Position numbers and translations under genes: made by a program. The notes beneath the pieces are model-generated. The model did not search any database. It saw nothing but the letters and a program-made list of their open reading frames with translations, and had not been told where the DNA came from. Positions 4,949-62,568 of a stretch of 64,000 nucleotides of DNA are shown in pieces. This stretch comes from a virus (taxonomy: Duplodnaviria > Heunggongvirae > Uroviricota > Caudoviricetes): the IMG/VR virus record IMGVR_UViG_3300028610_000968, one strand, 5' to 3'. Position 1 is the first letter of the stretch. The number at the start of each line of letters is the position of its first letter.

Positions 4949-5073
4949 AAAAGTTTATATATGTGATATGCTTCCTTTTTGTGGGCAGACTCATTGTGAA
5001 ACCTTTTGGGGAAGCGATTGTATCCTTACTGTGGTGGGAAGAACAAAACACAAGTGCAAAGAAGTAAACAAGA

Positions 5074-6344: not shown

Positions 6345-6365
6345 TAATAAGGGAGAAAGGTAGAG

Positions 6366-36434: not shown

Positions 36435-36729
36435 ATATACTGACATGGCTGACGACTCAATAAAAAACCTCAATACATTTAGATGGGGATTATTGTATAT
36501 GGCAGCTTTCCTTAGTATGTTTTCATTTGGTACTATTGCAGCTCTTTTTGTGTTGGCTTTTGCTCTCGGGGCTAGTTCAATACTAGAGTACGCAAGAATC
36601 TTGAAATTCTTACACATAAGACAACTAAAAGAAGAGGAAAAACAGAAAAAAGAAGCATTTGAAAGAGTAGCAAAGGGCTTGGAACTACTGATAAAGGAAA
36701 CGGAGAAGAAGAAGAATGAAGAACGATGA
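36424..36729 (+). CDS. membrane protein with charged C-terminal helix (101 aa)
   Basis: ORF track entry. Confidence 0.4.
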   Translation: MKDKYTDMADDSIKNLNTFRWGLLYMAAFLSMFSFGTIAALFVLAFALGASSILEYARILKFLHIRQLKEEEKQKKEAFERVAKGLELLIKETEKKKNEER

Positions 36730-37000
36730 TACTGTTTGCTGTATGTGTGAAGACGATATTATAGAATTCCCGAATTATAAATTAGTGAGTCGCAATTGGT
36801 TATACAAATTGTGGAGTAGATTATGGAACAGATTAGCAAGCCCTAATTATGTTTTAAAAAAGTATTTTGTAGACAAGCACGGAGGATACGGATGGGAAGA
36901 TTTAAGTATATGTACTAAGTGTTCATCAGAACTATATGAAAATGTTTTAGCTAGACGAATAATTGAAGAAGCTGGATTGGAGACGTTGAGAAGGAGCTGA
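36716..37000 (+). CDS. Zn-ribbon protein (94 aa)
   Basis: CCMCE...CTKC. Confidence 0.4.
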   Translation: MKNDDTVCCMCEDDIIEFPNYKLVSRNWLYKLWSRLWNRLASPNYVLKKYFVDKHGGYGWEDLSICTKCSSELYENVLARRIIEEAGLETLRRS

Positions 37001-37075
37001 ATATGTCAACTAAGATAGCAGCAAACATTGCACTGTTGTTAGGTTTAGCTATAATAATCGCTGGACTGTATTATA

Positions 37076-37444
37076 GTGGATGACGGTTATCCACCCAATA
37101 TGCCGCCCATTCAGAGATGGGGAGAAGAGCTCACTTGTTGGGCTTGTGGTACTCCCTGGACTGTCTCTATGGAAAGAGACCTTGGACAGACTTATATGAG
37201 GAATGAAGACGATTCCAAGTGTCCTGAGTGCGGTGTGGATAGTAATGACGAGGACGAAGCCAAGAAGCTAGAGATTGAAGAGGGTGACAACAATACTTGG
37301 CTGACCAGAGATGGTCACATAGTATATGATAAGAGATATTTTCCGTATGTATATCTAGCTTTTGCGGGAGAAGAAGGAAATTACGAAGACTATAGAGGCA
37401 TGGAAAGAGAACTCATTGATGCAGCTAGGGAGTTGGAAGACTAA
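37076..37444 (+). CDS. Zn-ribbon protein (122 aa)
   Basis: CWACG...CPECG. Confidence 0.4.
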   Translation: MDDGYPPNMPPIQRWGEELTCWACGTPWTVSMERDLGQTYMRNEDDSKCPECGVDSNDEDEAKKLEIEEGDNNTWLTRDGHIVYDKRYFPYVYLAFAGEEGNYEDYRGMERELIDAARELED

Positions 37445-37783
37445 ATGTTAAATCTAGGACAGGTAATAAATGACACAGAGAACCAAGAACTAGTTGTATA
37501 CTTGGGCTTTTACGCTCTTGCTGGGGGTAAATATCCTAGAGAAAGAAGTGCAAGTTTTTACAGCGAAAAAAGAGGATATTTTAGAGGTCTTAATCCTCAC
37601 TCCCAGGATGGGCAAAGACAATTCCAGATGGTTCATACTAATAGGGACGAGGAAATGAAAGTAGTAGCTATCCTTAAAGGAGTTGAGGGACTATACTTTG
37701 GTGAAATCGACACTGACAAAATTCCAAAAGAACACCTAATCAGACTGTTGGACGAATGTGAGAAGGAGCAGAAAAAGAGATGA
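37445..37783 (+). CDS. hypothetical protein (112 aa)
   Basis: ORF track entry. Confidence 0.4.
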   Translation: MLNLGQVINDTENQELVVYLGFYALAGGKYPRERSASFYSEKRGYFRGLNPHSQDGQRQFQMVHTNRDEEMKVVAILKGVEGLYFGEIDTDKIPKEHLIRLLDECEKEQKKR

Positions 37784-37940
37784 AGTCTCGCAGAGAAATA
37801 ACTAATGGTAAGAAAATAAAACCTCCAATGAGTGAAGGAGAGTATACTAGATTATACCAATTAGATAAGAACGGTAAAAAACGTGGAGTTATATTTCAAC
37901 TCAATATGAGAACTAGATCACGCAAAGGAGGTACTTCATA

Positions 37941-38177
37941 ATGGATGGCCATTCAAAACCCAAAATGAATATTCAAAATTACATAACTTTTGATGAACTA
38001 TTAGAAAAGAGATGTCCGATTTGCGAAAATCCTCTAGTAGATAGAGAGGATTTAGTAGATGCTATAAATGGTGGACACTCTGTAAACATGGTTAGACACG
38101 AATGCGAAGATAACAGAATGTATGAAATATATTTAGAGGCTCAAGTGTTCACCATAACAACTGAGGAGAAAATATAG
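37941..38177 (+). CDS. Zn-ribbon protein (78 aa)
   Basis: CPICE...H.C. Confidence 0.4.
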   Translation: MDGHSKPKMNIQNYITFDELLEKRCPICENPLVDREDLVDAINGGHSVNMVRHECEDNRMYEIYLEAQVFTITTEEKI

Positions 38178-38355
38178 TATGAGTATGGCAATAAGGTTCT
38201 GTCCTCATTGTGGTTCGTCGCCACTACCACGCACAGGTATAGTTGGATGTGGTTGTGGTATGTACACCTGCGATACTTGTGGAGGAAAATTCAAGATACA
38301 AGAGGACGAGGAAAAAGAAGAGCTTTGGCCTGGAGCAAAAGGAAAGTGATTTGAA

Positions 38356-38919
38356 TTGGCTACTTCACGTATACTGCGCTCAGATGGCACTATAGAAGAA
38401 GTGGACGTACACAGCCCATCTAAGTTTTTTGACGCTGTAGACCGCTCTCTACGCGCTGGAATACCCTATTTAAACGCTAAGATGGTAGACCCAGTTGTAG
38501 AGAAAAATAGACCACCAGCAAAAGAACAGAAACCGACTATAGCATCTACGTTGGTTGAATTAATGGAGCTAAACAGAGAATATACTGTAACTGAAATAAA
38601 CGATTTGTTGGCTACTAAAGGTATCAAAAACTCTAAAATATCTAGTGTCATGGGACGACATGAAAAGAACTTCAAAAATGTAGGGTTCGCCAAATGGAAA
38701 CTTATCGGCACAGAAGAAACAGATAAGCGACCATCTATACAAACATTTATCGCGAGCAAGATGGAACCAGGGCGAGTATACTCTACAAAAGAGGTAAATG
38801 AACTTTGTGGAAAAAATGTAATAGGCTCACTCGGCCACCACACAAAGATATTTGAATTTGTTGGAACAGGTTTAAACGGAAAGAGAGATTATAAAAAGTA
38901 TTGGAAACTCGCAGGATAG
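38356..38919 (+). CDS. hypothetical protein with two tandem repeats of a roughly 60-aa domain (187 aa); possible DNA-binding
   Basis: Repeat 1 is YTVTEINDLLATKGIK...GFAKWKL. Repeat 2 is VYSTKEVNELCGKNVIG...YKKYWKL. Confidence 0.4.
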   Translation: MATSRILRSDGTIEEVDVHSPSKFFDAVDRSLRAGIPYLNAKMVDPVVEKNRPPAKEQKPTIASTLVELMELNREYTVTEINDLLATKGIKNSKISSVMGRHEKNFKNVGFAKWKLIGTEETDKRPSIQTFIASKMEPGRVYSTKEVNELCGKNVIGSLGHHTKIFEFVGTGLNGKRDYKKYWKLAG

Positions 38920-39179
38920 ACTATATGACAAACGAGCGTCGGCCTCACTGGAACCACCCAAGTTGGGATGGTTTTAATCACTGCACTTGTAGTAGTTGCG
39001 GAGGCATCGGTTGTGATTGGGATGATTGTTACAATGGTATAGTATACAGACCAGAGTGTTTGCCAGAGTTTCTCAGCTCATCTCTTTCAGACACTATGAA
39101 AGAAATAATAAGAGAATCGGTAGAAGAAGCAAAGCTACTGATAGAGATGGACGTAGACAAACTATTGGAGGGTATATAA
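38901..39179 (+). CDS. hypothetical Cys-containing protein (92 aa)
   Basis: CTCSSCGGIGCDWDDC. Confidence 0.4.
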   Translation: METRRIDYMTNERRPHWNHPSWDGFNHCTCSSCGGIGCDWDDCYNGIVYRPECLPEFLSSSLSDTMKEIIRESVEEAKLLIEMDVDKLLEGI

Positions 39180-39480: not shown

Positions 39481-39542
39481 GCTTGGTTTTGCAAAGTCGC
39501 AGGTCAAGGCTATTGACAAGCGTTTTAAGACTATGGTATTAT
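39481..39542 (+). promoter_or_regulatory. sigma-A-like promoter P2 (TTGACA 39513-39518, 18-bp spacer, TGgTATTAT) with the conserved upstream element GCTTGGTTTTGCAAAGTCGCAGGTCAAGG
   Basis: Near-identical architecture to P1. It drives the 39601-47136 gene block. Confidence 0.55.
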
Positions 39543-39600
39543 GTGTTTGTGTTGTTGCAGTTACTAAATAGTAGCAAACACCCGATAGGAGGATTCGTAG

Positions 39601-40275
39601 ATGAGAGCTACAGCAAAACTTAAACTAAAGATAGGCAGACACTTTACAAACGTTGCATTATATAAAGCAACTGAAACAAAAGAGGTAACACGAAAAACCT
39701 TTCACATTGAAGATGATGGTGCTATCGAAACTAAATCGTTTTGTACTTATTGCGAAGCAGAAGTTGACGCAGACGATATAACGAAGAAAGTAATGATAGA
39801 CGGTGAACTATATGAATTGACAGATACACAAAAGGACAAAATATTAAATCCTGCTAAAGAGATTAAGGTGTTGCACTTGATACCAGAATCTAAAGCAGGC
39901 TCACTTTCGCCCGGTAGTAATCGTTACTATGTACGACCAGATAAGACTTTGAAAGATGAAACCGTGTTCAATGCCATATTTGATAACTTGGCAGAAAGAC
40001 AACAGATAGCAATAGTGGAATACGCTACGGGCAGTATCCCCTATATAGGATTTTTGACCAGCAAGGGGGTTTTACAATCACTACTGTACACGGACGAAAC
40101 TAGGGAAGCTCCAGATATGCCTACCGTTCAAGTGCCACGCCCCATGTACATACTCATGTCGAGGATTATGAACGAGAAAATAACCAACGACTTTGAGATA
40201 AAAAATACTGGGCCTAACAAAATTTACAGAAAATTACAAGAGCAAGCCAAACCGAAGACAGCCAAAACAAATTGA
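39601..40275 (+). CDS. hypothetical protein (224 aa), first gene of the amidoligase cluster operon
   Basis: RBS AGGAGGATTCGTAGATG. Confidence 0.5.
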   Translation: MRATAKLKLKIGRHFTNVALYKATETKEVTRKTFHIEDDGAIETKSFCTYCEAEVDADDITKKVMIDGELYELTDTQKDKILNPAKEIKVLHLIPESKAGSLSPGSNRYYVRPDKTLKDETVFNAIFDNLAERQQIAIVEYATGSIPYIGFLTSKGVLQSLLYTDETREAPDMPTVQVPRPMYILMSRIMNEKITNDFEIKNTGPNKIYRKLQEQAKPKTAKTN

Positions 40276-40290
40276 AAGGAAGTTTCATGA

Positions 40291-41355
40291 TTGGATTTAA
40301 GATTAGGAGCTGACCCAGAGCTACCATTAGTCAACAAAACGGGTCAAATAGTACCAGCGGAAGAAGTCTCAGCCGCAATCAGGCGAAGTCAAAAAGTTAA
40401 GAAAGACGGTATCAATGTTGAGATAAACCCCTCAGCAGCCTCGTGTAGAGAGCATTTACTCAGTTACATCGGTTCCTCGATAATGAGCGTTCAACGTATT
40501 TGCCAAAGCGAAGGTCTCGACGTTAGCAGGGCATCCACCTACGAAGTTCCAAGAAAAGTACTGGATGCTTTACCAGCAGCCGACAGACAGTTTGGTTGTG
40601 AAGAAGATAAAGATGCGTATTCCGGCAAAGTGAGAGTAGTCAAAGCCGACCCGAAGCAATTAGATAGGTATGCTGGTGGTCACATGCACTTTGGGTCTCC
40701 TTCATTAACTCGGCTCACCGACAAACAAATCCACGAAGTAGTACAGCTCTTAGATATAGGTGTTGGTAACATCGGTGTGCTCTTTGAGCAAGACCAAGAG
40801 GACAGCAACAAGAGGCGTAGGGAAGTCTATGGTTCCGCAGGAGCTTACAGACGGCCAGCACACGGGTTAGAGTACCGAGTTCCCTCTAATTGGTGGGTAT
40901 GGCATCCGGCAACAACTTCTATGATTTTCCTCTTAGCTAGGACTATGATAACCATGTACTTTGAGAACTCTGTCTTAGCCAAGACTATTATTTCTCATCT
41001 AGCGGAGTCTTCAAAGCAGGCTATCAACTTACAAGATAAGTACTTAGCTTTGGATAACATCGCTTACTTAATAGAGTTGTTCCACAGACAAAAACCATTG
41101 CCCAATAGGGTATCTGATGGCACTTTGATAGGTTTAGGTAAGAGGTTTTTTCGCCTCGACGACCCATTCGAGTGGGCTTCAATTATCTACTTGGCCGATA
41201 ACCAAGAAATTTTAGGAACAAATCTATTCACAAATTGGAAGGGTGTAGGATACGGAAAATCTGGTTATCAGAAGTTCATATCCAGCACATTGTCTCAAGA
41301 CCCAGGATTTATGGCTCAGTACGGCTTTCTAACTGGATTAAGGAGAATATTTTAG
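40291..41355 (+). CDS. GCS2/YbdK-like carboxylate-amine ligase (glutamine-synthetase-fold amidoligase)
   Basis: TTG start after GAAAGGAAG. The N-terminus LRLGADPELPLVN is a variant of the L-G-x-E-x-E motif, and GGHMHFG matches the G-x-H-x-H-x-G motif of GCS2 enzymes. Confidence 0.45.
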   Translation: MDLRLGADPELPLVNKTGQIVPAEEVSAAIRRSQKVKKDGINVEINPSAASCREHLLSYIGSSIMSVQRICQSEGLDVSRASTYEVPRKVLDALPAADRQFGCEEDKDAYSGKVRVVKADPKQLDRYAGGHMHFGSPSLTRLTDKQIHEVVQLLDIGVGNIGVLFEQDQEDSNKRRREVYGSAGAYRRPAHGLEYRVPSNWWVWHPATTSMIFLLARTMITMYFENSVLAKTIISHLAESSKQAINLQDKYLALDNIAYLIELFHRQKPLPNRVSDGTLIGLGKRFFRLDDPFEWASIIYLADNQEILGTNLFTNWKGVGYGKSGYQKFISSTLSQDPGFMAQYGFLTGLRRIF

Positions 41356-41684
41356 TGCTGTTAGTGCAAGTAGGTAATCCAGATCAACTTTATCTTATTG
41401 AGTTTCCAATGGCAGAGTTAGTTTGGTGCTATGGAGATTTAATAAGTGAAGAAAAGAAAATGGAACTGGAAACAGGGAAAGAGTGTGACAGACTGTTCTT
41501 TCAAATTGAAGGAGAGTTGTGGCTTTCGATTCCAAAAGATGTTCATTACTACTTTAAAGAATTGAGAACACACACAGGGGCTTTCACAAAAAAAGTGATT
41601 ACTCCACCAATGTTTTACAAGATATTTATGAATCCCACCGAAGTGACGGCTAGGATAGAGGATAAATTAGTATGTGCGGGATAG
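41355..41684 (+). CDS. hypothetical protein (about 109 aa)
   Basis: GTG start overlapping the previous TAG, after AAGGAG. Confidence 0.35.
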   Translation: MLLVQVGNPDQLYLIEFPMAELVWCYGDLISEEKKMELETGKECDRLFFQIEGELWLSIPKDVHYYFKELRTHTGAFTKKVITPPMFYKIFMNPTEVTARIEDKLVCAG

Positions 41685-42925
41685 TAGCGTTAAGTTTAGA
41701 GAACAAGGTAAGGACAGAGAAAGAGTACGGAGATATTCGTACCCTATTGGGTTCATTAATCCAATCTACTAGTAAAAGAGGAGAACACGCTACAGGGATA
41801 GTTACCATTAGTAAAAGTGGTGACGCTGTATTGCTCAAATCGAACGCCAAATCAGCGGAGTTCATTGAATCGGAACAATACAATATGCTAATCCCAACCA
41901 TAGGTGCTAGAACCAAAACTATCCTAGCTCATTGTAGGAGAACCACTAAGGGTTCAGCATCCATCAAACAGAATAATCATCCTGTATTAGTACACCCCTT
42001 TGTGGGGATACACAACGGTACTATTATGAATGATGATGAGTTGGTGAAAGAACACAAACTGTCCAGGGACGGCTCTGTTGATAGTGAAGTAATTATTAGG
42101 TTGCTCAAACATTACAACCCTAAGAAGATAACAAAGGAATCTATTAAGAAAACATGTGAGGAATTAGAAGGTGGATTTGCTTGCGTTACAGTTAATTTAC
42201 ACCAACCTAATATCTTGGGGCTTTACAAAAATCGTAACCCAATAATTGTTTTCAGAGTACCAGAGTTGGGACTTGTCGGAGTTGTTTCTGAGTACCTTTT
42301 CATTAGTGATGCTTTGAAGGCAGTAGGAATCAAAGGCACTAGTGATACTTTCCACATGCGCGGTGACAGAGGTTTAATCCTTGATTCTAATATACCCCAA
42401 AAAGGTATAGACTATGGAGACCAGGCGTTTCTAATTGACGATGCTAATCCGGTTGGAAAAAGTTTCGAGGGTTACTACACTGCTGCTGATAGAGCAGAAG
42501 TGCAAAGGAGAAGAAAAGCTGGTTTAGGGAGTGAGTTCGGACACAATCAAGGAGTAAATATTGATAGAAATAGGAGGCAGCACAGTTTAGCCCCAGGAAA
42601 ACAGTTAGGGGATACTACTATGGAAAGTGCTAAAATAAAAGCACAACTACACTACGCTATGAGTTCAGAGATATTTAAAACAAGGTTACTCAAGAACGGT
42701 GGACATGCTATGAATAGAAATGATAAGGACAATCTCCTAGATATATTCAATGCAGCCTATCTGATGGGTCGTTATACCTCTGGGCAAGAGCTTGAGAATG
42801 TAAAAACACTAGAGGAAGAGGCATTAATATCAAATATGGAAGTATTACTCACAGAGCGAGCTTCTTTCCTACAGTTGCCTTATGATGAATTGTCTGAAAA
42901 AGTAAAGAATAGGAAGAGTTCTTAA
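41672..42925 (+). CDS. class-II (Ntn) glutamine amidotransferase domain protein with an uncharacterised C-terminal domain of about 200 aa
   Basis: N-terminal MCGIV (Cys2 nucleophile), then HCRRTTKGS and NNHP, which are GATase-II signatures. There is no asparagine-synthetase SGGxDS motif. Confidence 0.65.
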   Translation: MCGIVALSLENKVRTEKEYGDIRTLLGSLIQSTSKRGEHATGIVTISKSGDAVLLKSNAKSAEFIESEQYNMLIPTIGARTKTILAHCRRTTKGSASIKQNNHPVLVHPFVGIHNGTIMNDDELVKEHKLSRDGSVDSEVIIRLLKHYNPKKITKESIKKTCEELEGGFACVTVNLHQPNILGLYKNRNPIIVFRVPELGLVGVVSEYLFISDALKAVGIKGTSDTFHMRGDRGLILDSNIPQKGIDYGDQAFLIDDANPVGKSFEGYYTAADRAEVQRRRKAGLGSEFGHNQGVNIDRNRRQHSLAPGKQLGDTTMESAKIKAQLHYAMSSEIFKTRLLKNGGHAMNRNDKDNLLDIFNAAYLMGRYTSGQELENVKTLEEEALISNMEVLLTERASFLQLPYDELSEKVKNRKSS

Positions 42926-44511
42926 TGGGCGGGAAAGATGAAGTATTTTTAACACAGCAAAAAGATACCATAACTGCCATTCAGTATGAGCAGATTATGG
43001 ATGGTCTATTGGCTACCCAAAAAACAGCGGTAGAGTTTGAGGTTCACATGGCTTGGAAACCACAAGATTACTGTCCTTGCTTACACTTCTCTGATAGAGA
43101 AGCGTGCATGTGTGAACTCATACCTAAATGTGTTCCCCAATGTACTATCTGCGTGAACCACAAGATGATATGTGGGCATCCTTACAACATGTACACCAAA
43201 AAAGCTGCCAAAGAGTGTAGGCAATTCCAACCTCTATGTAGTAGTAGCTGCCCTGAAAAACGTAGTGCAAAATCTTGTGTTAAATGCAAAGATAAAAGAA
43301 TTTGCTCACCTTGTACATTTTCTCGTTGCGACGCTACCACTAAGAAAAGAGTTAAAAAAGAGTTCATACAAACTCTTGCAAGAGAGTTACAGCCCACTTT
43401 GAGGCATGATATTACTGGCAAATGTGCAGCTCTGGAAGTTAAGACAGAAGGCTCTGTGCCGGATGGAATAGAAGTGCCAACAGTAGCTCAAAGAATAAAC
43501 TTTGGACTGATGAAGAACAACTTCGAGTCTATTATTAATACTTTATCGAATCATGGTTGTACTTTATCTCCAAGATGTAGCACTCACATACATTATCTCT
43601 TGGCTTACTATGATAATGGACAGACTGAGTACAACGAAATGGGCTTTACAATCCCTAGTATTGTGCTGAAAAATTTCTATCAACTACACAGGAGTTTTAC
43701 AGATGTTTTAATCTGGCTGACTTCGGCTGTTGATATTACGCACATCACTAGGTGGCAAAAACATAGGAATTTCCAAACACTGATTGGTGTGAATGGGACT
43801 CTGAATAGAAAAACGTTTGGCAGCATACAACAACACATGGCAAGACATGAGGGAAAATACTCCTTTCTGAACATTAACAATGTACAGATGGACGAAACAG
43901 GTAACATAGTAAAACTTCACGTTGAGGCTAGGTATCCTGATGGTATTTTTTCTCCAAGTGTGCTTAGTGCTTTTTGTGTATTAGTGTCTGCTATGATGAT
44001 GAAATCAGTTTCTCTTTCCAGATATGGATTAGTGGAAACAAGAGAAATGAATAACGTTAATCATTTAGCTAATAGTTTGGTGGCTGGCGGAGATTGGGAG
44101 CACAGAGCATCACAACCACACTTAAACACTAAAGACAGGAAAAAAGTCATAGATAGAAGTAAATACTTTGTAAACTTCTTAAAAGCAGAGATATTATCTT
44201 TGTCAGAAGAAGCTTACAATATCTTATTTTCCCTGTGTGAAACTCCTGTACACTCTCACTTCACTTCATGGAAAAATCAAGATTGGCGTGCAGTTGAGAA
44301 ATTTTACAAACAAAAGAATCAGGAGCATGATGAAGTTATTACAGCTATCATAGAGACTAACCAAGTCACTGCGGAGACTCCAAAGAAATGGTTTGCTGAG
44401 GTCAGCGCCCATAGTGGTTTACCTGCGCGAACTATAGAAACTTATGTTTCATCCAGACGGGAGTTGCTGTGGGATGGTTCTGTGGGACAATTCTTGTCCC
44501 TCAAAAGATAA
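42925..44511 (+). CDS. putative amidoligase (glutamine-synthetase-like, Amidoligase_2-type) with a Cys-rich insertion
   Basis: N-terminal VEFEVHM (E-x-E) and a later STHIHYL (H-x-H) bracket an insert of about 90 aa with at least 18 Cys. ATGG overlap with the GATase stop. Confidence 0.35.
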   Translation: MGGKDEVFLTQQKDTITAIQYEQIMDGLLATQKTAVEFEVHMAWKPQDYCPCLHFSDREACMCELIPKCVPQCTICVNHKMICGHPYNMYTKKAAKECRQFQPLCSSSCPEKRSAKSCVKCKDKRICSPCTFSRCDATTKKRVKKEFIQTLARELQPTLRHDITGKCAALEVKTEGSVPDGIEVPTVAQRINFGLMKNNFESIINTLSNHGCTLSPRCSTHIHYLLAYYDNGQTEYNEMGFTIPSIVLKNFYQLHRSFTDVLIWLTSAVDITHITRWQKHRNFQTLIGVNGTLNRKTFGSIQQHMARHEGKYSFLNINNVQMDETGNIVKLHVEARYPDGIFSPSVLSAFCVLVSAMMMKSVSLSRYGLVETREMNNVNHLANSLVAGGDWEHRASQPHLNTKDRKKVIDRSKYFVNFLKAEILSLSEEAYNILFSLCETPVHSHFTSWKNQDWRAVEKFYKQKNQEHDEVITAIIETNQVTAETPKKWFAEVSAHSGLPARTIETYVSSRRELLWDGSVGQFLSLKR

Positions 44512-44513
44512 GT

Positions 44514-44819
44514 ATGGTTATTAAACGACAATCAAACATATTGATAAAACTAGGAGTTTTAAAGACTAAACAAGCAGCAAGTGATAGAACTGAATACACA
44601 GATTGTGTTCCTGTGAACAGTGCTCACTACAAATATTGTCAATTGGGAGCGTGTTTGCCCAAAAGCTCTTCGAGTTGTTGTCAATTTTGTTCAGTGAGAA
44701 GCGCTTGTAGTGGTGTTTGTGCTAGTGTTGTAAAACCAAAAAAAGTGATGAGGAAAAGAAAACTAAAAACAAATGATACTGGGACTGGCACAATAGGCCC
44801 AATATGGAGAGATTTATAG
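44514..44819 (+). CDS. Cys-rich basic protein (about 101 aa)
   Basis: ATG at 44514. CQLGAC...CCQFCSVRSACSGVC. Confidence 0.35.
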   Translation: MVIKRQSNILIKLGVLKTKQAASDRTEYTDCVPVNSAHYKYCQLGACLPKSSSSCCQFCSVRSACSGVCASVVKPKKVMRKRKLKTNDTGTGTIGPIWRDL

Positions 44820-45482
44820 GTGAAAGTGTTGGATGGTAATGTAACAAATGGACAAAATGTTGGAAAAATACTTACCTCGCGTAGTTCACAGGGAGGTAGA
44901 TTGTACACTGTGGCTTGGGATACTGGATTAATTTCTCACTATCACTTAGAGGATTTATTAGGCAGTGGTATAAAGTGTTCCGAGTGCTTCACTTTCGGAG
45001 AGGATTTGCTTGTCTGTAAGACATGTGGAAAATATGTTTGTCCAGCACATGTTTTTAAGAAAAGAGGATTACATTTCTGTAAACAATGTTACACTGGAAA
45101 AAAAACATACAGGCGAGGACAATCTAGGGTAAGAGCTGAATTCACGGAAAGAACACGAAATTTGACTATCACTCAGGCTAGAGCAATACAAGAGGAAAGA
45201 CGCGCCGCCGGGCCTAATGCTAATCCTGTACCTCCTATACCTGAACCTCCAGCTCAGGGTGGGCCAATTTTCACACACATAGGTAATGCGTTCCATACTA
45301 CAATCAACCAAGATGGTACACACATCATGGATCGGGATGGTACAGTTCGACAACCTGTTGACATGGACAGGATTATGCGAGAATTTAACACTGAAGAGGA
45401 TGAAGAAGATGAAGAATTTGATGACGATGAAGTGTTTGATGAAGACGAGTTTGACGATGATGATGAAGATGGGGAGCTGTAA
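44820..45482 (+). CDS. Zn-finger protein with a poly-acidic C-terminal tail (220 aa)
   Basis: Eight Cys in four CxxC-like pairs between residues about 50 and 90. The C-terminal 30 aa are almost entirely D/E (EEDEEDEEFDDDEVFDEDEFDDDDEDGEL). Confidence 0.5.
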   Translation: MKVLDGNVTNGQNVGKILTSRSSQGGRLYTVAWDTGLISHYHLEDLLGSGIKCSECFTFGEDLLVCKTCGKYVCPAHVFKKRGLHFCKQCYTGKKTYRRGQSRVRAEFTERTRNLTITQARAIQEERRAAGPNANPVPPIPEPPAQGGPIFTHIGNAFHTTINQDGTHIMDRDGTVRQPVDMDRIMREFNTEEDEEDEEFDDDEVFDEDEFDDDDEDGEL

Positions 45483-45484
45483 GA

Positions 45485-46210
45485 ATGGTAACAAAACGAA
45501 GTGTTTATCATAGTGTACCTTTTAGTAGTGACACTATAGGTAATCTGAAAGATAATGCTTTTAGAGTGCTCAAAACCAACTCCAAAAAGAGAATTAGAAA
45601 TGGGCTATTACTAAACTTTGGAGCTGAAAGCATCGACTCTGAGCTAGCTGAGAATGTTGTGGTATTAAATCGCCCAGAGCATGTACAACAATCCAGTGAC
45701 AAGGTAACTATGTTCAACTTGTTATCTGAGTACATGCCGTACACCACAACCAACATTAACGAACTCCCAGATTTACCTTTTTATGCCAAAGGTAGAACAG
45801 GCAGGAAAGGGAGAAACAAAGAATTAGTGACTAAAGAGAACATAGACACTGTTAATTTGAGACAGTACAGTTTGTTTCAAACATTCATTGAAGCTAAAAG
45901 AGAGTTCAGGATTTTTGTCATTAAAACTCCAGACGGAGACCCCAAAATTCTAATCTCTCATATTCGTGAAGCTCCTGGAGTTTTTGTACAGTGCGGGAAA
46001 CGAGTTTCAAACGCGGGTGTAGATTTGATACACTTTTCTAGGAATGTGGCTGAACAAACACATCTAGATTTTATAGCTTTGGATATTCTTAGAGCGCCAA
46101 ACGAAGAACTCTTTCTTTTAGAAATAAATAGCTGCCCAGGCATAGGAGCCTCGACAGCTGTTAGGTTAGATTCATTTTTACAAAGGTGGTGGGAAGTACT
46201 AGATGGGTAA
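45485..46210 (+). CDS. ATP-grasp family ligase (RimK-like)
   Basis: The C-terminal motifs FRIFVI...ISHIRE...LDILRAPNEELFLLEINSCPG fit the ATP-grasp nucleotide-binding fold (E-x-N-x-x-P-G). Confidence 0.5.
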   Translation: MVTKRSVYHSVPFSSDTIGNLKDNAFRVLKTNSKKRIRNGLLLNFGAESIDSELAENVVVLNRPEHVQQSSDKVTMFNLLSEYMPYTTTNINELPDLPFYAKGRTGRKGRNKELVTKENIDTVNLRQYSLFQTFIEAKREFRIFVIKTPDGDPKILISHIREAPGVFVQCGKRVSNAGVDLIHFSRNVAEQTHLDFIALDILRAPNEELFLLEINSCPGIGASTAVRLDSFLQRWWEVLDG

Positions 46211-46766
46211 GGGTAGAAAGAGAAAAGGTAGAGGCAAAAACAACGTTGTGGTTATTGTCCCAGAAGAAAAAATTGACATAGAAGAAAAAGTTGACACAAA
46301 GCCAAAGAGCGAAGAGAAAGATACCAGCAAGAAACATTCTCCGTGCCAAGAAGAGCTTCTCTGTTGTCTTTCTTGTAAGAGAACAGAAGGGTTCACTGAT
46401 GAAGTGAATCACGGAAAAGGCAGAGGCAAAAGCTCCAGGCTTGTTCCGCCCTGTAGATATGCTGCCGCTAAGGTTCAATTTTACTTGAGCAACCACAAGG
46501 GTAGTTGGGAAGAAATGCTAGATTTACATTCAGTCAAAGAAACTACTATGGACAAAATAGTACAAGTTTTATCTGAATTTGATGCTGATAGATTTCACAG
46601 AAGATGTGGTCATGCGGGGTTAAATGATGTAAACAAAGGAACAGTACATTGTTTCCATTACTCCGTGGAGGCTATGTTGGAGGCTTGTATTGAAGAAACA
46701 ACCAAATGTAAAAAGTTTTATCCACAAAATAATGTTACTAGTGTAGCAGAAGGGTTCGTGATTTAG
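46203..46766 (+). CDS. hypothetical protein with basic N-terminus and Cys/His cluster (187 aa)
   Basis: ORF track entry. Confidence 0.45.
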   Translation: MGKGRKRKGRGKNNVVVIVPEEKIDIEEKVDTKPKSEEKDTSKKHSPCQEELLCCLSCKRTEGFTDEVNHGKGRGKSSRLVPPCRYAAAKVQFYLSNHKGSWEEMLDLHSVKETTMDKIVQVLSEFDADRFHRRCGHAGLNDVNKGTVHCFHYSVEAMLEACIEETTKCKKFYPQNNVTSVAEGFVI

Positions 46767-46767
46767 G

Positions 46768-47136
46768 TTGGTAGTACAGAAAACAGCATACACAAGGAGA
46801 ATCACATTAAACGAAAAAGGATGGGGCAAGTTAAAAGCTGTAGCTACTTGCAAAGCTCCCAGCAGGCATCCACTTGTGATGGCATGTTCAAAAGGTAATG
46901 GACTTACTAGATTTGCGGTGGTTATCATCATCAAAAAGATATACAACCACCTCGAAAAGAATTACACGAAAGCGCAAATCAAAGAACACACTACCGCGCA
47001 AACGGCAATGGAGATCCGTACCGATGAAAATATTTACGGTACTGGTGTTTGGACAACCGTATTAAGCCGCCTTCAAGGCACTTCGCCTGGAGTAAAAGTA
47101 AAAGAGGACTTCAAAACTAGACAAGTTGGACAATGA
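46768..47136 (+). CDS. hypothetical protein (122 aa)
   Basis: ORF track entry. It is the last + strand gene. Confidence 0.45.
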   Translation: MVVQKTAYTRRITLNEKGWGKLKAVATCKAPSRHPLVMACSKGNGLTRFAVVIIIKKIYNHLEKNYTKAQIKEHTTAQTAMEIRTDENIYGTGVWTTVLSRLQGTSPGVKVKEDFKTRQVGQ

Positions 47137-47318: not shown

Positions 47319-48287
47319 TTATAAAAAGAGACGTTCTCTAAACGTGTTCCAAATTGTCTTCCCATTCTCTTGTTTCAGTGTTACATAGCCGTTAGTTTGT
47401 GGTGAGGGATAACGGATACTCTGCTTCGCATAGTTCATTGACTGGCATAAGCAACCACCTTCTATCACTTTACAGTTAGTACTCTTGTAGCTCACTCCCA
47501 TTTGGTGTGTGTGGGCTACGCACAACGCTTTAAAGTCTCCAATATCTATATCGTCCTTCCACTCCCTAAACCACTTATAAGCGTTGATGGGAGTCTTTAG
47601 TTCCACTTTACTGTTAGCTTCTGGATGGGCAACAATCAAATCACCGTATTGCCAGTACCAGTTATCAACTATAGTAATGTTGGGGAACGGACTCATTAGT
47701 TTCTCTAATATATTTGCCTCTAGTAAAAAGAATAACGACGGAGGGACTACCTTCTGGAGTAACCTTTTCGGTCTGTTATCATGATTACAAGCTAACATCA
47801 CAATGTGATTCAAGTTCTGTGATAAATATTCTGCCACTCTCATTATGCCGTCCAGTTCTACTTCAAACGGTACTGAGTAGTCTTTCCTAAACACAGACAA
47901 CGCATAGCAATCCATAATGTCTCCATTGATAATAGTCAAGTCTGCTGTTAGGTTTCTTTCAACCGCGAACTCAAGTTTATCATCGTACTGAAAAGGAACG
48001 TGTAAGTCCTGAAGTATCAATATGTCTTCAGCATTACTTGGTACAGGGTTCTTTCTCGCGTGCAGACTATCCTCAATGGTTTTCTTGTACTTGTCATAGT
48101 ACGGCGTTGGTACTGAGACAGGTTTATCTTTTAAACTTACCATGTTTGTCCTTGCCCTGTCAATGGCGTGTCTAACCTTGTCCCTGGTCAGATCAATACC
48201 ATACTTCGCACTTAGTTCTTCTCCTATTTCCGATTGGCTCTTCTTTCCCCTATTCCATATTTCTAAAGCTTCTTTATCAATTTGCAA
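47319..48287 (-). CDS. calcineurin-like metallophosphoesterase with N-terminal HTH
   Basis: Phosphoesterase motifs are DLHVP (D-x-H), NGDIMD (GDxxD) and LACNHD (GNHD/E), with an N-terminal helix-turn-helix. Confidence 0.6.
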   Translation of the reverse strand: MQIDKEALEIWNRGKKSQSEIGEELSAKYGIDLTRDKVRHAIDRARTNMVSLKDKPVSVPTPYYDKYKKTIEDSLHARKNPVPSNAEDILILQDLHVPFQYDDKLEFAVERNLTADLTIINGDIMDCYALSVFRKDYSVPFEVELDGIMRVAEYLSQNLNHIVMLACNHDNRPKRLLQKVVPPSLFFLLEANILEKLMSPFPNITIVDNWYWQYGDLIVAHPEANSKVELKTPINAYKWFREWKDDIDIGDFKALCVAHTHQMGVSYKSTNCKVIEGGCLCQSMNYAKQSIRYPSPQTNGYVTLKQENGKTIWNTFRERLFL

Positions 48288-57663: not shown

Positions 57664-58596
57664 CTATAATGTTAATTCTTTTTGCTCGTTATCTTTATTC
57701 CTAAGTTTAGCCACCGCGTTATAATCATCAAACGAATGGTGTCTCCACTGTCTGGGGGAGTTAGCCCAATTATTCAAGTGCCTTGTTAATCTTGGACTCC
57801 CCTCAAAGCATTGTACATGGGTATTTATATTGTAATCATGCAGCATGTTAACTCTATATAAATCCTCTTCATGGGTGCTGTTATAACCAACCAACACAAA
57901 TGCTCCTAGTCTATTTCTATTAATTGGGAATCCATTTCTCCTTAGAGTTTCTATTCCCTTTTTAACTGTCTTCTCTAACTTAATATCATCGAAAGCGAAT
58001 CTAGTATACGGTGGATTAGCATAAACAATCCCTTGTGCTATTTCATCTGTCATAATTCTCATGTCTATACCACCATTAAAATCAACCTTCAACTTTAGCT
58101 GTACTATTTCTTCCACTCTATCTTTCCAATCAGGATTAGCAAAGAAATTATTATCCAACAATATAATTTTATCACTCTTTGGATTATATATATCGTGGAC
58201 AGTAGCGACTGAACGCATCTTGCCTTCCTTCTCTGCAACAACACAGAAAGAACATTTCCGTATACAACCTCTAGACGTAAACCCAATCCCATGATGTATA
58301 TTAGGATATAACTCATAATCTGGTTTTATATATTCTATTTCATCTGCTAAATTCGTTTGTAAATCCCAGCCAGTTCCACCTACTTCTGCATCTGGATAGA
58401 TATTTAACCACTGGTCAACCTTTGCTCTATTCTTTTTAAAGATAGTAGAAATGAATACTTTATCAGGTCTCACATCTATATCATTGAGGTGAGTAAGATA
58501 ACCTAATTTTTTGTAATGGGCGCTAATTTTCATTAACGCCACATTACCAATCTTAGTTTTATCCATATCTATTAATAAGATATTTCCTTCAAACAT
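57664..58596 (-). CDS. radical SAM domain protein
   Basis: Canonical CxxxCxxC Fe-S motif in GFTSRGCIRKCSFCVV. Confidence 0.55.
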   Translation of the reverse strand: MFEGNILLIDMDKTKIGNVALMKISAHYKKLGYLTHLNDIDVRPDKVFISTIFKKNRAKVDQWLNIYPDAEVGGTGWDLQTNLADEIEYIKPDYELYPNIHHGIGFTSRGCIRKCSFCVVAEKEGKMRSVATVHDIYNPKSDKIILLDNNFFANPDWKDRVEEIVQLKLKVDFNGGIDMRIMTDEIAQGIVYANPPYTRFAFDDIKLEKTVKKGIETLRRNGFPINRNRLGAFVLVGYNSTHEEDLYRVNMLHDYNINTHVQCFEGSPRLTRHLNNWANSPRQWRHHSFDDYNAVAKLRNKDNEQKELTL

Positions 58597-59393
58597 TATT
58601 TTCTCCCTGTAGAATCCTCAATGCCTAAACCTTTGGCGGTGTCTCTCAGACTACTTGTGTCGTCTCCAGCTCTATAACCAGAAGCAAAAGCAGTAACAGT
58701 TTCCCCGACATTCATAACACCTGTATCTGAAGCAACATAAGAGAATGTATCTCCACCTCTGAAGCCCATGCCCATTCCTTCACTCCAAGCGTCTTGGTTA
58801 GCTCCTAAGTATAAGAACTTCCAGCCACACTCTTCTTTACTATTGATCAATCTTCTAACATCATCAGCGGTGTACTCAATGGATGAATTCTCCATGCCGT
58901 CAGTAATAACAACAACTAATGTTCTTGTTTTTTTAGTGACCGCACACCCGCACTCTCCACACTCAGTAAGTCTTCCTTCGCCAGAGAATTTATTGACAGT
59001 GTGCCCTACAGCATCTAATAGATTCGTACCACCTCTAGGTCTAAAACTGTTTCTAGAGAGATTAGGTACTTTTCTAACATCTTTCTGTGAATGCACAACC
59101 CTCACATCATCTGATATGTTTGCCTCTACCGGAAGAGGAGGCCACATAGTAGTCGTCGTCGTTGGCTCAAAAGGGTCAGGGCGCTGTTTCTTTTTTGTTG
59201 GTGCTACTAACCTCCGTTTGTTGTGAGATTTATCAAACGTAACTAACGTCATTCTAGTTTTTCCTTTTTCTCTGACTTGCTCATTTTTAAACTCATTGAA
59301 CATACCGATAGTGGCGTCCCTAATCTTTTCCATTGAACCAGACCTGTCAAGTATTACCACTATATCTAAATCCTTATTCTTTCCCATTCGCAT
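58596..59393 (-). CDS. von Willebrand factor A (VWA) domain protein
   Basis: MIDAS motif DIVVILDRSGSM near the N-terminus. Confidence 0.6.
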   Translation of the reverse strand: MRMGKNKDLDIVVILDRSGSMEKIRDATIGMFNEFKNEQVREKGKTRMTLVTFDKSHNKRRLVAPTKKKQRPDPFEPTTTTTMWPPLPVEANISDDVRVVHSQKDVRKVPNLSRNSFRPRGGTNLLDAVGHTVNKFSGEGRLTECGECGCAVTKKTRTLVVVITDGMENSSIEYTADDVRRLINSKEECGWKFLYLGANQDAWSEGMGMGFRGGDTFSYVASDTGVMNVGETVTAFASGYRAGDDTSSLRDTAKGLGIEDSTGRK

Positions 59394-60887: not shown

Positions 60888-61385
60888 TCATCCGACACTA
60901 AACACATCCTCGCCTATCCTTTGTAAAATCAACTGATTTTCAGAACCAGCCCAACTCTTGTGTTTTGGACTTTCTTTTTCATATCTTCCTATCACCAAAG
61001 TTTCTATCTCTACTAACTCCATTGGTTCATTTTTGAATCTCTTCATAATGTCTTCTAGTTCATATCCAGTGTACAGCCAAATACTACTTTTGGGAAACTT
61101 GTCTTTGAATCTTATTATTAGCTCCTTAACGCTTTCCCACTGGTCAAGAGGTTCACCGCCAGAAACTGTCAAACCATCATATGCTCCTGCATTATTTTTC
61201 TCAAAATAATTCATTAAGTAATCAACAGTCGCTTCGTAGCCGTCGTGTGTGTTCCATGTGTGAGAGTTATGACAACCTTTACACTGTAAAGAACACCCTT
61301 GAACCCACAAAACATACCTCAACCCTGGCCCATTTACTATACTATCAGTTGTAATAGAGGATACTCTAATTTTCTTCTTCGACAT
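60888..61385 (-). CDS. nrdG: anaerobic ribonucleotide reductase activating protein (radical SAM)
   Basis: GPGLRYVLWVQGCSLQCKGCHN carries the CxxxCxxC motif. Size is 165 aa. Confidence 0.8.
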   Translation of the reverse strand: MSKKKIRVSSITTDSIVNGPGLRYVLWVQGCSLQCKGCHNSHTWNTHDGYEATVDYLMNYFEKNNAGAYDGLTVSGGEPLDQWESVKELIIRFKDKFPKSSIWLYTGYELEDIMKRFKNEPMELVEIETLVIGRYEKESPKHKSWAGSENQLILQRIGEDVFSVG

Positions 61386-61548
61386 TTTTCACCCCATTGT
61401 GATTTACTCTGTCTTCCAGCTCACTAATTTTAGCTGGGTTCCACTTATCTGTTTCAGCTAAATAACCTGTTATCCTTTGTATATATCTTATATCTGTACT
61501 TTTACAACTTGGACACTCTATCGCTTTTTGCTCTGTCACTATCATCAC
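61366..61548 (-). CDS. nrdD: NrdD C-terminal fragment: second zinc CxxC pair plus glycyl-radical domain, encoded as a separate 60-aa ORF
   Basis: CPSCKS...RITGYL...WNPAKISELEDRVNH matches the NrdD glycyl-radical signature (R-x-x-G-Y...W-N-x-G-K-x-x-E-x-x-x-R). Confidence 0.65.
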   Translation of the reverse strand: MMIVTEQKAIECPSCKSTDIRYIQRITGYLAETDKWNPAKISELEDRVNHNGVKNVEEEN

Positions 61549-61862
61549 CCCACGTGTATTATTTTTGTATCAGGACAATTCACTCTAAGATACTGCACTA
61601 CTTTCCATGTATCTTCATAGAATACTTCTAATCCCATTTCTTTTATAACTACGGATTTGTGTATTGCAGCGTCCTCATGTGTGAAATTCAAAGGATTAAA
61701 TGATACTGGATTATTGATGCCCCTTTGGTTTAGTTCATTTAATGTTCCTTCAGCAATAGAATAAACTCTGCCTGTAATTATAACAGCGTGTGACTCTGGC
61801 ATTAGCTCAGGCCCACCTATTATAACTCCATCTATATCATACCCTACTCTTAGTAATTCCAC
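61545..61862 (-). CDS. HAD-like protein (105 aa)
   Basis: GYDIDGVI (DxDGV motif I). Confidence 0.35.
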   Translation of the reverse strand: MELLRVGYDIDGVIIGGPELMPESHAVIITGRVYSIAEGTLNELNQRGINNPVSFNPLNFTHEDAAIHKSVVIKEMGLEVFYEDTWKVVQYLRVNCPDTKIIHVG

Positions 61863-62374: not shown

Positions 62375-62568
62375 TTAGTAAAACCAAACGGTATTTTATC
62401 TGGTTTATCCTTTCGTACAAGCTCTTGTCCATTGGCTCCATATATCACTATAGGTCTGCTGTATGTTTTTTCTTCCACGGTCAGCTCTGGATTGTGAGTT
62501 TTTCCACCGTGTCTCATATATCTTCCAGTCACACTGTTCCATTCCCAAGCACTATCTCTTTGTGTCAT
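62371..62568 (-). CDS. hypothetical protein (65 aa)
   Basis: ORF track entry. Confidence 0.4.
   Translation of the reverse strand: MTQRDSAWEWNSVTGRYMRHGGKTHNPELTVEEKTYSRPIVIYGANGQELVRKDKPDKIPFGFTK

Follow-up and report, generated by a model that had tools for sequence, protein, structure and literature searches.

Gene array and promoter candidate

Ten genes on one strand (+) occupy positions 39601–47136 of a 64,000-nucleotide stretch of DNA (the window), which covers about half of the genome of an uncultured 129-kb phage. The source contig is k141_3673617 of ENA ERZ27251120 (129,023 bp), the public gene calls of which match. Intergenic distances are −13 to +15 nt, and the packing of the ligase-cluster genes is operon-like. 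Every open reading frame that an earlier note had described from the sequence is present where it was placed, and the source-contig calls concur; a Ku-like gene, a 109-aa frame and two frames at 46203–47136 are additional to that description. The sole sizeable gap upstream of the array contains a strong sigma-70-like promoter candidate (39513–39542, +; TTGACA-18-TGgTATTAT), with a ribosome-binding site (AGGAGG, 39589–39594) downstream of it. No other site in the region matches as well (11 of 12, with an extended −10). Promoter-like sites in the region number 17 against 20.2 expected from shuffled sequence, no excess over chance; that a single promoter drives the operon, as had been proposed, is therefore no more than plausible. 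Downstream, a replication module (metallophosphoesterase, RecA, PolA) adjoins the cluster.

Enzymes of the cluster

First ligase, 40291–41355 (+). GS-fold carboxylate-amine ligase of the phiEco32 type (COOH-NH2_lig type 2; PF14395, E 1.4e-12; phrog_3815, E 1.8e-31), extended at the C-terminus by about 90 aa. Contains the motif AGGHMHFG and shares GADPEL, FGCExD, AGGHxHxG, RRxxYG and EYRxxSNxW with its orthologues in phages NV1 and QDWS535. Nearly all of 79 database relatives carry the PF14395 annotation. Fold and motif are as first described, but the family is PF14395, not GCS2/YbdK as proposed with them.

Glutaminase, 41672–42925 (+). Stand-alone class-II (Ntn) glutamine amidotransferase (GAT-II), as previously named from its MCGIV start; matches GATase_6 (E 7e-10) and GATase_7 (E 2.8e-6). 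All catalytic motifs are kept (HCRRTTKG, HNG, DSEVI), and 30 homologues share Cys2, R89, N115-G116 and D137 without exception. In the AlphaFold2 model, pLDDT is >90 over the domain (residues 1–240), the helical tail (245–417) being of low confidence; Foldseek pairs the model with 1xff, the glutaminase domain of GlmS, at 3e-15. Homologue coverage is limited to the N-terminal half, and neither this coverage nor the model reveals a synthase domain.

Second ligase, 42925–44511 (+). Diverged Amidoligase_2-like GS-fold ligase, here called AL; the Cys-rich insertion noticed before is confirmed, with 16 Cys at residues about 45–140, and is probably metal-binding. The C-terminal domain (about 465–528) is winged-helix-like, and its net charge averages −2.5 over 86 members of the family. 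Kinship with Amidoligase_2 (PF12224) is visible only in profile-profile or fold comparison. The AL family has zero occurrences in 50,697 deposited phage genomes.

ATP-grasp, 45485–46210 (+). Small RimK-like ATP-grasp ligase (phrog_2599, E 7e-11; TIGR00768, E 5e-4; RimK Pfam, E 0.05). A three-sequence profile matches the RimK structures 7qyr, 5zct and 4iwx at 1e-7 to 4e-7. Aligns with the ATP-grasp proteins of NV1 and QDWS535, keeping EFR, LDFxAxDI and LExNxxPG; the glycine-rich loop is degenerate, and one loop is deleted relative to the cassette orthologues. The signal is weak at the level of the single sequence but consistent, and it points to the RimK-like identity suggested in the earlier note. 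Profile and fold searches thus placed all four enzymes in the folds first named for them, not in unrelated ones.

Cyclotransferase, 4439–4948 (+). Gamma-glutamylamine cyclotransferase type (GGACT/AIG2; PF06094, E 6.3e-17; phrog_2520, E 2.6e-11), which bears out the GGCT fold assigned earlier. Adjoins an isochorismatase-like gene inside an NAD-salvage-like module 35 kb from the cluster, so that its tie to the ligases is indirect.

Genome reports (e.g., PMC10945688, PMC10580990) read such enzymes as auxiliary metabolic genes that strengthen the metabolism of glutamine, glutathione or nitrogen in the infected host, and the names glutamine amidotransferase, glutathione-synthase-like ATP-grasp and GGCT would suit a gamma-glutamyl cycle. 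This reading is very unlikely here. No housekeeping orthologue is present, NCBIfam scores against cut-offs being 60/381 for GlmS, 40/350 for PurF and 19.5/143 for the RimK family; GAT-II is without a synthase domain; and PF14395, PF12224 and AL are phage-centred and have no housekeeping counterpart.

Other genes of the array

The first gene of the array, 39601–40275 (+), encodes a Ku-like DNA-end-binding protein (PF02735, E 1.2e-16; phrog_4873, E 4e-13; TIGR02772, E 5e-18). No Ku gene lies beside the cassette in any relative examined, and the protein probably has a function apart from that of the ligases. A 109-aa protein (41355–41684, +), called on the source contig and overlapping its neighbours at both ends, has no Pfam match. 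A basic 101-aa protein with 8 Cys (44514–44819, +) has no family matches and is not conserved. It is followed by a 220-aa protein (44820–45482, +) with zinc-finger-like CxxC pairs and a strongly acidic C-terminal tail, and the array ends with two frames (46203–47136, +) of 187 aa with 9 Cys and of 122 aa, basic, which have no relatives in cassette loci. The Cys-rich proteins reported to follow the ligases are present, but they do not belong to the conserved cassette, having no homologues in other loci.

In the 220-aa protein, D and E make up 76% of the last 25 residues, and its stop codon lies 2 nt ahead of the ATP-grasp start. Together with the RimK structures as the nearest solved relatives of the ATP-grasp, this would fit a self-contained tagging system in which the ATP-grasp modifies or extends the acidic tail in the manner of RimK on S6, and the other ligases modify the Cys-rich neighbours. 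Such a system is quite unlikely, since homologues of the acidic-tailed protein are absent from all cassette loci compared, leaving it unique to this phage, and the enzymes are conserved without it and without the other small proteins.

Comparison with other phages

The cassette comprises two different GS-fold ligases, a stand-alone class-II glutaminase, a RimK-like ATP-grasp and a GGACT. NV1, QDWS535 and UFV-P2 are cultured phages with its classical version, which some 310 deposited genomes carry (LUZ24-like, phiEco32-like); the taxon spread of COOH-NH2_lig2 (308 records) is almost the same as that of Amidoligase_2 (315 records). AL adjoins GAT-II in 10 of the 12 loci first sampled, the remaining 2 being cut by contig ends. 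An unrelated 50-kb phage (L261) has the same four components, COOH-NH2_lig, AL (568 aa, long form), GAT-II and ATP-grasp, with a second GAT-II and a second COOH-NH2_lig. Other combinations are GAT-II, RimK and two COOH-NH2_lig (L257); RimK, a divergent GAT-II and two COOH-NH2_lig (L258); ATP-grasp, GGACT and COOH-NH2_lig (L259); COOH-NH2_lig with GGACT directly upstream (L254/L255); COOH-NH2_lig, GGACT and, in place of GAT-II, a Peptidase_C26 gamma-glutamyl-hydrolase-type GATase (L256); and four Amidoligase_2-like proteins, three GAT-II, one AL and one GGACT (L260). In NV1, L254/L255, L256, L259 and L260, the GGACT gene lies beside COOH-NH2_lig or nearby; it completes the classical cassette as its fifth member and is displaced by 35 kb in this phage.

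Phage early regions are mosaic, gene order differs between phages, and conservation of the enzymes does not extend to the Ku gene and five small frames of the array, all of which would suit unrelated early genes brought side by side by chance. The adjacency of AL and GAT-II, the repeated four-component set and the joint distribution of the two ligase families in about 310 genomes contradict this, making it extremely improbable. The co-occurrence in phages that the earlier note had described is borne out, and the neighbourhood comparison it called for found the association recurring in unrelated phages, hence not fortuitous.

By profile and fold comparison, AL appears as a far-diverged sister family that occupies the usual Amidoligase_2 slot in this phage. 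AL and canonical Amidoligase_2 are both present in L008 and in L260, so AL is not simply an Amidoligase_2 substitute.

Cassette genes are flanked by RuvB or primase-helicase genes in L008, L010, L260, L261, NV1 and QDWS535, and the replication module lies beside the cluster here. In viral metagenomes, Lee et al. (2022, PMC8989533) reported amidoligase and glutaminotransferase genes in association with genes for thymidine hypermodification. Together with this and the winged-helix-like domain at the end of AL, the replication-gene neighbours could mean that the ligases and amidotransferase add glutamyl or amide groups to a modified base or its precursor and so evade restriction. Hypermodification of DNA or nucleotides is nevertheless unlikely. 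No dUMP/dCMP hydroxymethylase, 5-HMUDK kinase, aGPT-Pplase or DpdA occurs among the scanned frames of the window, which is about half the genome; the negative charge of the AL domain is unlike that of a generic DNA binder; and bacterial AL and GAT-II pairs are located in signalling operons, not in DNA-metabolism operons. To our knowledge no base hypermodification has been reported in LUZ24-like or phiEco32-like phages, which also counts against it.

Comparison with known systems

With the classical cassette of LUZ24-like, phiEco32-like and related phages the cluster shares a COOH-NH2 ligase of type 2, a second GS-fold ligase beside GAT-II, a RimK-like ATP-grasp, a GGACT in the genome and an early/middle position beside replication genes; the COOH-NH2 ligase and ATP-grasp of NV1 and QDWS535 are direct homologues. 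Differs in that the second ligase is of the AL family, not PF12224; in gene order, GAT-II preceding the second ligase; in lacking the protein of about 190 aa that classical cassettes keep between their ligases, the 109-aa protein at the equivalent position being dissimilar; in the distant GGACT; and in the extra Cys-rich and acidic proteins interleaved among the enzymes.

Pupylation by PafA/Dop (GS-fold protein ligase and deamidase) has a similar logic, carboxylate activation with Gln/Glu deamidation or amidation. Here, however, neither a gene for a Pup-like tag nor a partner of the proteasome or ATPase kind is recognised, sequence identity is 6–7%, and the place of a Dop-type paralogue is taken by a separate GAT-II glutaminase.

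EgtA/EgtC, PuuA/PuuD and IpuC/IpuF each pair a GS- or GCL-fold ligase with a GAT-type hydrolase. Likewise, a GS-fold ligase here invariably accompanies an enzyme of the amidotransferase fold that stands alone; EgtC is matched weakly (TIGR03442, E 7e-4), and in L256 a Peptidase_C26 enzyme takes the place of GAT-II. Those pairs serve catabolism or biosynthesis in cells and act on small-molecule amines that are known, whereas the cluster has two GS-fold ligases and an ATP-grasp and is without recognisable downstream pathway enzymes.

RimK, the poly-alpha-glutamate ligase of ribosomal protein S6, has the solved structures most closely related to the ATP-grasp, which is shorter (241 aa), with a reduced N-terminal domain, and scores 19.5 bits against the family cut-off of 143. 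In butirosin biosynthesis, an ATP-grasp (BtrJ) and a GGCT-fold deprotecting enzyme (BtrG) form the defining gamma-glutamyl protect-and-deprotect pair; the same combination occurs here, but carrier protein and aminoglycoside genes are absent.

Status and proposed function of the cassette

The amidoligase cassette was predicted in 2009 by Iyer, Abhiman, Burroughs and Aravind, as cited in PMC10580990 and PMC3890496, and the Pfam names of PF14395 and PF12224 stem from that prediction. No biochemical characterisation was found in the literature, in agreement with the earlier note, and a 2023 paper (PMC10580990) still calls the function unexplored. The cassette recurs across phages, its classical version in cultured ones; the cluster is therefore a variant of a known, predicted cassette. 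As an undescribed system it was overstated, this kind of cassette being already predicted computationally and common in cultured phages. The novelty is confined to the AL variant, a previously unnamed, Cys-rich relative in place of the usual ligase.

This cassette variant most probably builds and trims, with ATP, amide conjugates of glutamyl or glutaminyl type on an amine acceptor; a metabolite or peptide tag as the product is hypothetical. Characterised members of GS, GCL, YbdK, PafA/Dop, RimK, GlmS/PurF/EgtC and GGACT act on glutamate, glutamine or gamma-glutamyl groups. By analogy with them, both GS-fold ligases would use ATP to turn a carboxylate, most probably the gamma-carboxylate of glutamate, into an acyl-phosphate that is then joined to an amine. 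GAT-II would be the obligate neighbour and working partner of AL or Amidoligase_2, either releasing ammonia from glutamine, the pair then forming a two-component glutamine-dependent amidotransferase, or hydrolysing a gamma-glutamyl amide as EgtC does. The ATP-grasp may attach one or more alpha-linked glutamate residues, and GGACT may strip gamma-glutamyl groups off amines as 5-oxoproline. Acting jointly in early/middle infection, the enzymes would assemble and cut back an amide or isopeptide conjugate, small and containing Glu/Gln, on an amine acceptor; a protein of the host or the phage, a part of the cell envelope and a small amine are all candidate acceptors. This phage adds an AL-bearing version of a widespread gene set.

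The phage and the gene array

The window is part of a contig of ~129 kb from an uncultured phage (ENA ERZ27251120 k141_3673617). A Logan assembly contains the same locus, and so do JGI data. The family-A DNA polymerase shares at most ~35% identity with any deposited phage, and megablast of the cluster region against deposited phages gives no match. Judged by sequence, the phage is without a close cultured relative.

Ten genes lie on the same strand in one array (39601-47136), with intergenic distances of -13 to +15 nt. All ORFs named in the earlier note are found at the positions proposed for them, and public gene calls concur. The sole sizeable upstream gap holds a sigma-70-like site, TTGACA-18-TGgTATTAT (39513-39542, plus strand), followed by an AGGAGG ribosome-binding site. 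Promoter-like sites are no more numerous in total than expected by chance, which leaves a single promoter for the whole array plausible only. The first gene encodes a Ku-like DNA-end-binding protein (39601-40275; PF02735, E 1e-16). A Ku gene beside the cassette is absent from every relative; the Ku-like protein therefore probably protects DNA ends, a function separate from that of the ligases.

The end of the array abuts minus-strand replication genes (metallophosphoesterase, RecA-like, PolA, clamp and others). The calcineurin-like metallophosphoesterase gene (47319-48287, minus strand) converges on it. Metallophosphoesterase, amidoligase and GATase genes are co-listed in one phage lineage (OM43-phage paper, PMC10580990). 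A role in DNA hypermodification is hinted at by Lee et al. 2022 (PMC8989533) and by the adjoining replication genes, but the partner genes expected for it were not found among the scanned ORFs of the window.

Neither the Ku-like gene nor any of the array's five small ORFs (109, 101, 220, 187 and 122 aa) has a counterpart in other cassette loci. All five ORFs are unconserved and are rejected as conserved partners or tags; the Cys-rich proteins of the earlier note do not recur together with the enzymes. No small ORF terminates in GGQ or GGE, and the resemblance to the pupylation enzymes PafA and Dop is at fold level only. Small Cys-rich (CxxC) ORFs are unusually many in the early region (36716-39179 and 44514-46766), in addition to the Cys-rich insertion of the ligase AL.

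The 220-aa protein (44820-45482), encoded immediately upstream of the ATP-grasp gene, combines CxxC pairs of zinc-finger-like appearance with a proline-rich linker and an acidic tail (76% D/E in the last 25 residues, terminus DGEL). No homologues were found anywhere, and in the small-ORF comparison the acidic tail is encoded only by this phage. The protein could be a DNA mimic or a substrate of the ATP-grasp enzyme. Tagging of this neighbour by the cluster is attractive locally but is without comparative support.

The ligase AL and its family

AL is a 528-aa protein encoded at 42925-44511 (plus strand), with a fold of the GS/GCL type. No match to it is observed in Pfam, PHROGs or NCBIfam. Among 50,697 phage genomes on deposit, nothing is recovered by tblastn with AL or with the AL of the 50-kb phage contig L261. 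When 5.8 billion proteins are searched by word seeding, AL itself is the only match, and the AL profile gives no meaningful match to PDB sequences. HMMER, run exhaustively over 1.84 billion representatives, yields 167 relatives at E up to 1e-3, a family size of ~167 clusters at 50% identity.

Across an alignment of 86 sequences, six residues never vary (E183, H221, N250, E334, R336, D339), and six more (E37, E39, D175, S177, G181, H223) are conserved in at least 90%. By sequence comparison, the acidic/His/Arg pattern matches GS-fold motifs; these residues are candidate metal and ATP ligands. The Pfam model Amidoligase_2 (PF12224) does not match the AL of the window and weakly reaches 2 of the 86 family members. 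Profile-profile alignment (hhalign) with phage Amidoligase_2 gives 95.9% probability and E 5.9e-9, via the motifs DGSLxxGxE, RCSxHxH and ExR. A closer relationship to COOH-NH2 ligase type 2 is rejected (hhalign probability 0.8%). Nearly all of the best matches in a viral structure library are proteins named 'amidoligase'. From the profile alignment and the structure matches it follows that AL is a far-diverged sister of Amidoligase_2, which bears out its first reading as a large amidoligase-like protein of GS fold.

An insertion of ~100 residues after the first strand is present in 43 of the 86 members. It contains 16-18 cysteines, and 12 of these fall in conserved columns; 41 other members have no cysteine there. 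Model confidence in the insertion is low. The winged-helix end was considered as a DNA binder and finds no support, since the family-wide net charge is negative. The AL family, with its Cys-rich insertion and winged-helix-like end, is undetected by standard libraries and is new here.

The GAT-II protein

The product of 41672-42925 begins with MCGIV and matches GATase_6 (39.5 bits; cut-off 27) and also GATase_7. Its gene overlaps the start of AL by 1 nt. Thirty homologues all keep C2, R89, T92, N115-G116 and D137-S138; these residues align with those that are catalytic in the glutaminase domain of GlmS. With the match and the catalytic residues retained, the class-II Ntn glutamine amidotransferase of the earlier note is confirmed. 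Residues 1-240 of the AlphaFold2 model have pLDDT >90 and match the GlmS glutaminase domain (Foldseek, 1xff, 3e-15); residues 245-417 form a helical tail of low model confidence. Database homologues span the N-terminal half only, and many are stand-alone domains of ~265 aa. The C-terminal half is rejected as a synthase domain, being a low-confidence helical model without homologues. No fusion with a ligase (Rosetta-stone) is found among 120 GAT-II homologues.

The protein scores far under the curated cut-offs of the bifunctional class-II amidotransferases: GlmS 60 vs 381 bits, PurF 40 vs 350, AsnB 23 vs 267. The protein is thus predicted to be a free-standing glutaminase or Ntn hydrolase. An auxiliary-metabolism role for the cluster is contradicted, as no orthology to housekeeping enzymes is found.

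COOH-NH2 ligase, ATP-grasp and GGACT

The product of 40291-41355 belongs to PF14395, 'phage phiEco32-like COOH-NH2 ligase type 2' (47.9 bits, cut-off 25; E 1.4e-12), and matches phrog_3815 (E 1.8e-31). Its motifs GADPEL, FGCExD, AGGHxHxG, RRxxYG and EYRxxSNxW recur in its orthologues from Pseudomonas phage NV1 and Alcaligenes phage QDWS535. An additional C-terminal stretch of ~90 aa is present. Its former assignment to GCS2/YbdK (PF04107) is not upheld, PF14395 being the sole Pfam match at E up to 0.1. The two are separate families of the same superfamily.

The product of 45485-46210 gives weak ATP-grasp signals as a single sequence (RimK E 0.05; TIGR00768 E 5e-4; phrog_2599 E 7e-11). It is homologous to the ATP-grasp enzyme of the classical cassette, the amidoligase gene set of LUZ24-like and phiEco32-like phages (QDWS535, phmmer 6.9e-10), and retains EFR, LDFxAxDI and LExNxxPG. 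A three-sequence ATP-grasp profile matches solved RimK structures at ~1e-7. By this homology and profile match it is a RimK-like ATP-grasp, as first named, weak though its single-sequence Pfam signal is. Its score against the RimK family TIGR00768 is 19.5 bits vs a curated cut-off of 143.4; the sequence points to a relationship with RimK at fold and motif level only.

The GGCT-fold enzyme noted elsewhere in the window proves to be of the GGACT/AIG2 (gamma-glutamylamine cyclotransferase) type (4439-4948; PF06094, E 6e-17), encoded 35 kb upstream of the cluster. It lies in an NAD-related run (3885-7775): an adjoining isochorismatase/nicotinamidase-like gene (3885-4442), GGACT, and downstream a gene that joins a cytidylyltransferase-like domain (probably NMNAT) to a Nudix domain (5391-6344), then NAMPT (6366-7775; phrog_448, E 1e-146). 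The run resembles a phage module for NAD+ salvage or reconstitution; such modules are reported to counter NAD-depleting defences.

Elsewhere, a radical-SAM protein (phrog_9298, E 1e-68) adjoins a VWA-domain protein (57664-59393), and anaerobic ribonucleotide reductase NrdD is encoded near an NrdG-like activase (Fer4_12, E 1e-35; 60888-63956). Together the radical-SAM, NrdD and NrdG-like genes suggest an anaerobic host.

Conservation of the neighbourhood

In the classical cassette of NV1, QDWS535 and UFV-P2 the order is COOH-NH2_lig2, a ~190-aa protein, Amidoligase_2, GAT-II, ATP-grasp and GGCT. Across the phage collection COOH-NH2_lig2 (308 records) and Amidoligase_2 (315 records) have near-identical taxon distributions. 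Shared with the window are the PF14395 ligase, an N-terminal-Cys class-II GATase adjoining a second GS-fold ligase, and a RimK-like ATP-grasp inside the same array. The slot of PF12224 Amidoligase_2 is occupied in the window by its distant homologue AL. The window order is ligase, GAT-II, AL, ATP-grasp, whereas the classical one is ligase, amidoligase, GAT-II, ATP-grasp, GGCT; GGCT directly follows ATP-grasp in the classical cassette, in contrast to the distant GGACT of the window.

Loci with AL were sampled by degenerate DNA patterns in metagenome and genome collections; 13 of 251 loci encode AL, and most of the matches arose by chance. A second degenerate pattern gave two false matches, and the related-locus search with P0002 and P0004 gave zero relatives. 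Among the 12 loci sampled initially (window contig included), 10 have AL adjoining GAT-II, and contig ends truncate the other two.

Contig L261 encodes COOH-NH2_lig, AL (568 aa, long form), two GAT-II, a second COOH-NH2_lig, ATP-grasp and GNAT. Two COOH-NH2_lig occur in L257 (with GAT-II and RimK) and in L258 (with RimK and a divergent GAT-II). COOH-NH2_lig is accompanied by ATP-grasp and GGACT in L259, by a Peptidase_C26-type GATase and GGACT in L256, and by GGACT immediately upstream in L254/L255 (another 129-kb phage). L008 combines AL, GAT-II and a canonical Amidoligase_2. The 178-kb phage contig L260 (Logan SRR14555696; 800-20500) has an enlarged island: within 20 kb it packs four Amidoligase_2-like and three GAT-II genes along with a single AL (443 aa, short form), a single GGACT and RuvB.

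The neighbourhood is conserved as a combinatorial toolkit without fixed gene order. The set of components recurs in L261 and in the classical phages while the order varies, which answers the call for a check of conservation across phages; a chance neighbourhood is contradicted by these comparative data. The pattern across loci is a pair of unlike GS-fold ligases, one of which is joined to a free-standing GAT-II; a RimK-like ATP-grasp and GGACT usually accompany them. The invariant pairing of AL with GAT-II is new here.

A Peptidase_C26/class-I GATase of the gamma-glutamyl-hydrolase type is encoded near the COOH-NH2 ligase in L256 (9266-9946), in place of GAT-II, and in L003 (9343-9801), together with GAT-II. 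Its presence fits gamma-glutamyl chemistry.

The suggestion of an undescribed system holds for the AL family, which is new, and fails for the kind of system, which is already predicted computationally and common in cultured phages. No experimental characterisation of this kind of system was found in the searchable literature; its function, according to PMC10580990, is still to be explored.

Proposed mechanism

GS-fold ligases phosphorylate the gamma-carboxylate of glutamate and couple it with ammonia, cysteine, an amine or lysine, whereas the glutamates added by ATP-grasp enzymes of the RimK type are alpha-linked. The gamma-amide of glutamine, or that of gamma-glutamyl compounds, is hydrolysed by class-II amidotransferase domains. 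GGACT converts gamma-glutamyl-amines to released amines and 5-oxoproline. To our knowledge, the characterised relatives of all five enzyme families handle glutamate, glutamine or gamma-glutamyl groups. From this shared chemistry we infer, by analogy, that the cluster would be an ATP-driven pathway building and trimming a small Glu/Gln-containing amide or isopeptide conjugate. AL and GAT-II would form its core. They would act as a two-component glutamine-dependent amidotransferase, or alternatively as a pair that first glutamylates and then deglutamylates, like EgtA/EgtC or PuuA/PuuD. For phiEco32, cell-wall modification blocking superinfection was suggested by Iyer et al. (2009), as relayed in PMC10580990.

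Occurrence in bacteria and significance

AL-family genes are present in Desulfobacterota and Chloroflexota MAG contigs (L215, L216, L238, L205 and L207), one of them 4.2 Mb in length; the pair is therefore not phage-restricted. A GAT-II partner is seen in L205, L216 and L238; L207 and L215 are truncated at contig ends. In L215, L216 and L238 the genes around AL encode hybrid histidine kinases and response regulators, together with an HD-GYP-type regulator and DUF4388+Roadblock/LC7 proteins. A conserved protein of ~157 aa is encoded immediately upstream. This occurrence among signalling genes is new here, and the AL-GAT-II pair may act in signalling.

Multi-ligase cassettes are carried by hundreds of cultured phages, including therapeutic LUZ24-group Pseudomonas phages, and by many uncultured ones. 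To these the window contributes a second GS-fold ligase family missed by standard libraries, evidence for pairing with a stand-alone class-II glutaminase as the invariant core of the system, and the presence of this pair in bacterial signalling operons as well. Together these points mark AL and GAT-II, as a unit, as the test target. Cultured cassette-bearing phages are the better experimental entry.

The bacterial contigs suggest that the cassette chemistry reaches beyond phages. A wider reading, considered improbable, is that AL and GAT-II are an unrecognised two-component enzyme modifying macromolecules. Through its Cys-rich, probably metal-binding insertion and its winged-helix-like domain, AL would bind a specific target, either a protein or a nucleic acid, and would go on to place a glutamyl isopeptide mark there or amidate one. 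If true, phages would reprogramme or disarm the host through this mark, and in Desulfobacterota and Chloroflexota it would serve as a new kind of regulatory PTM within signalling operons of the two-component and Roadblock types.
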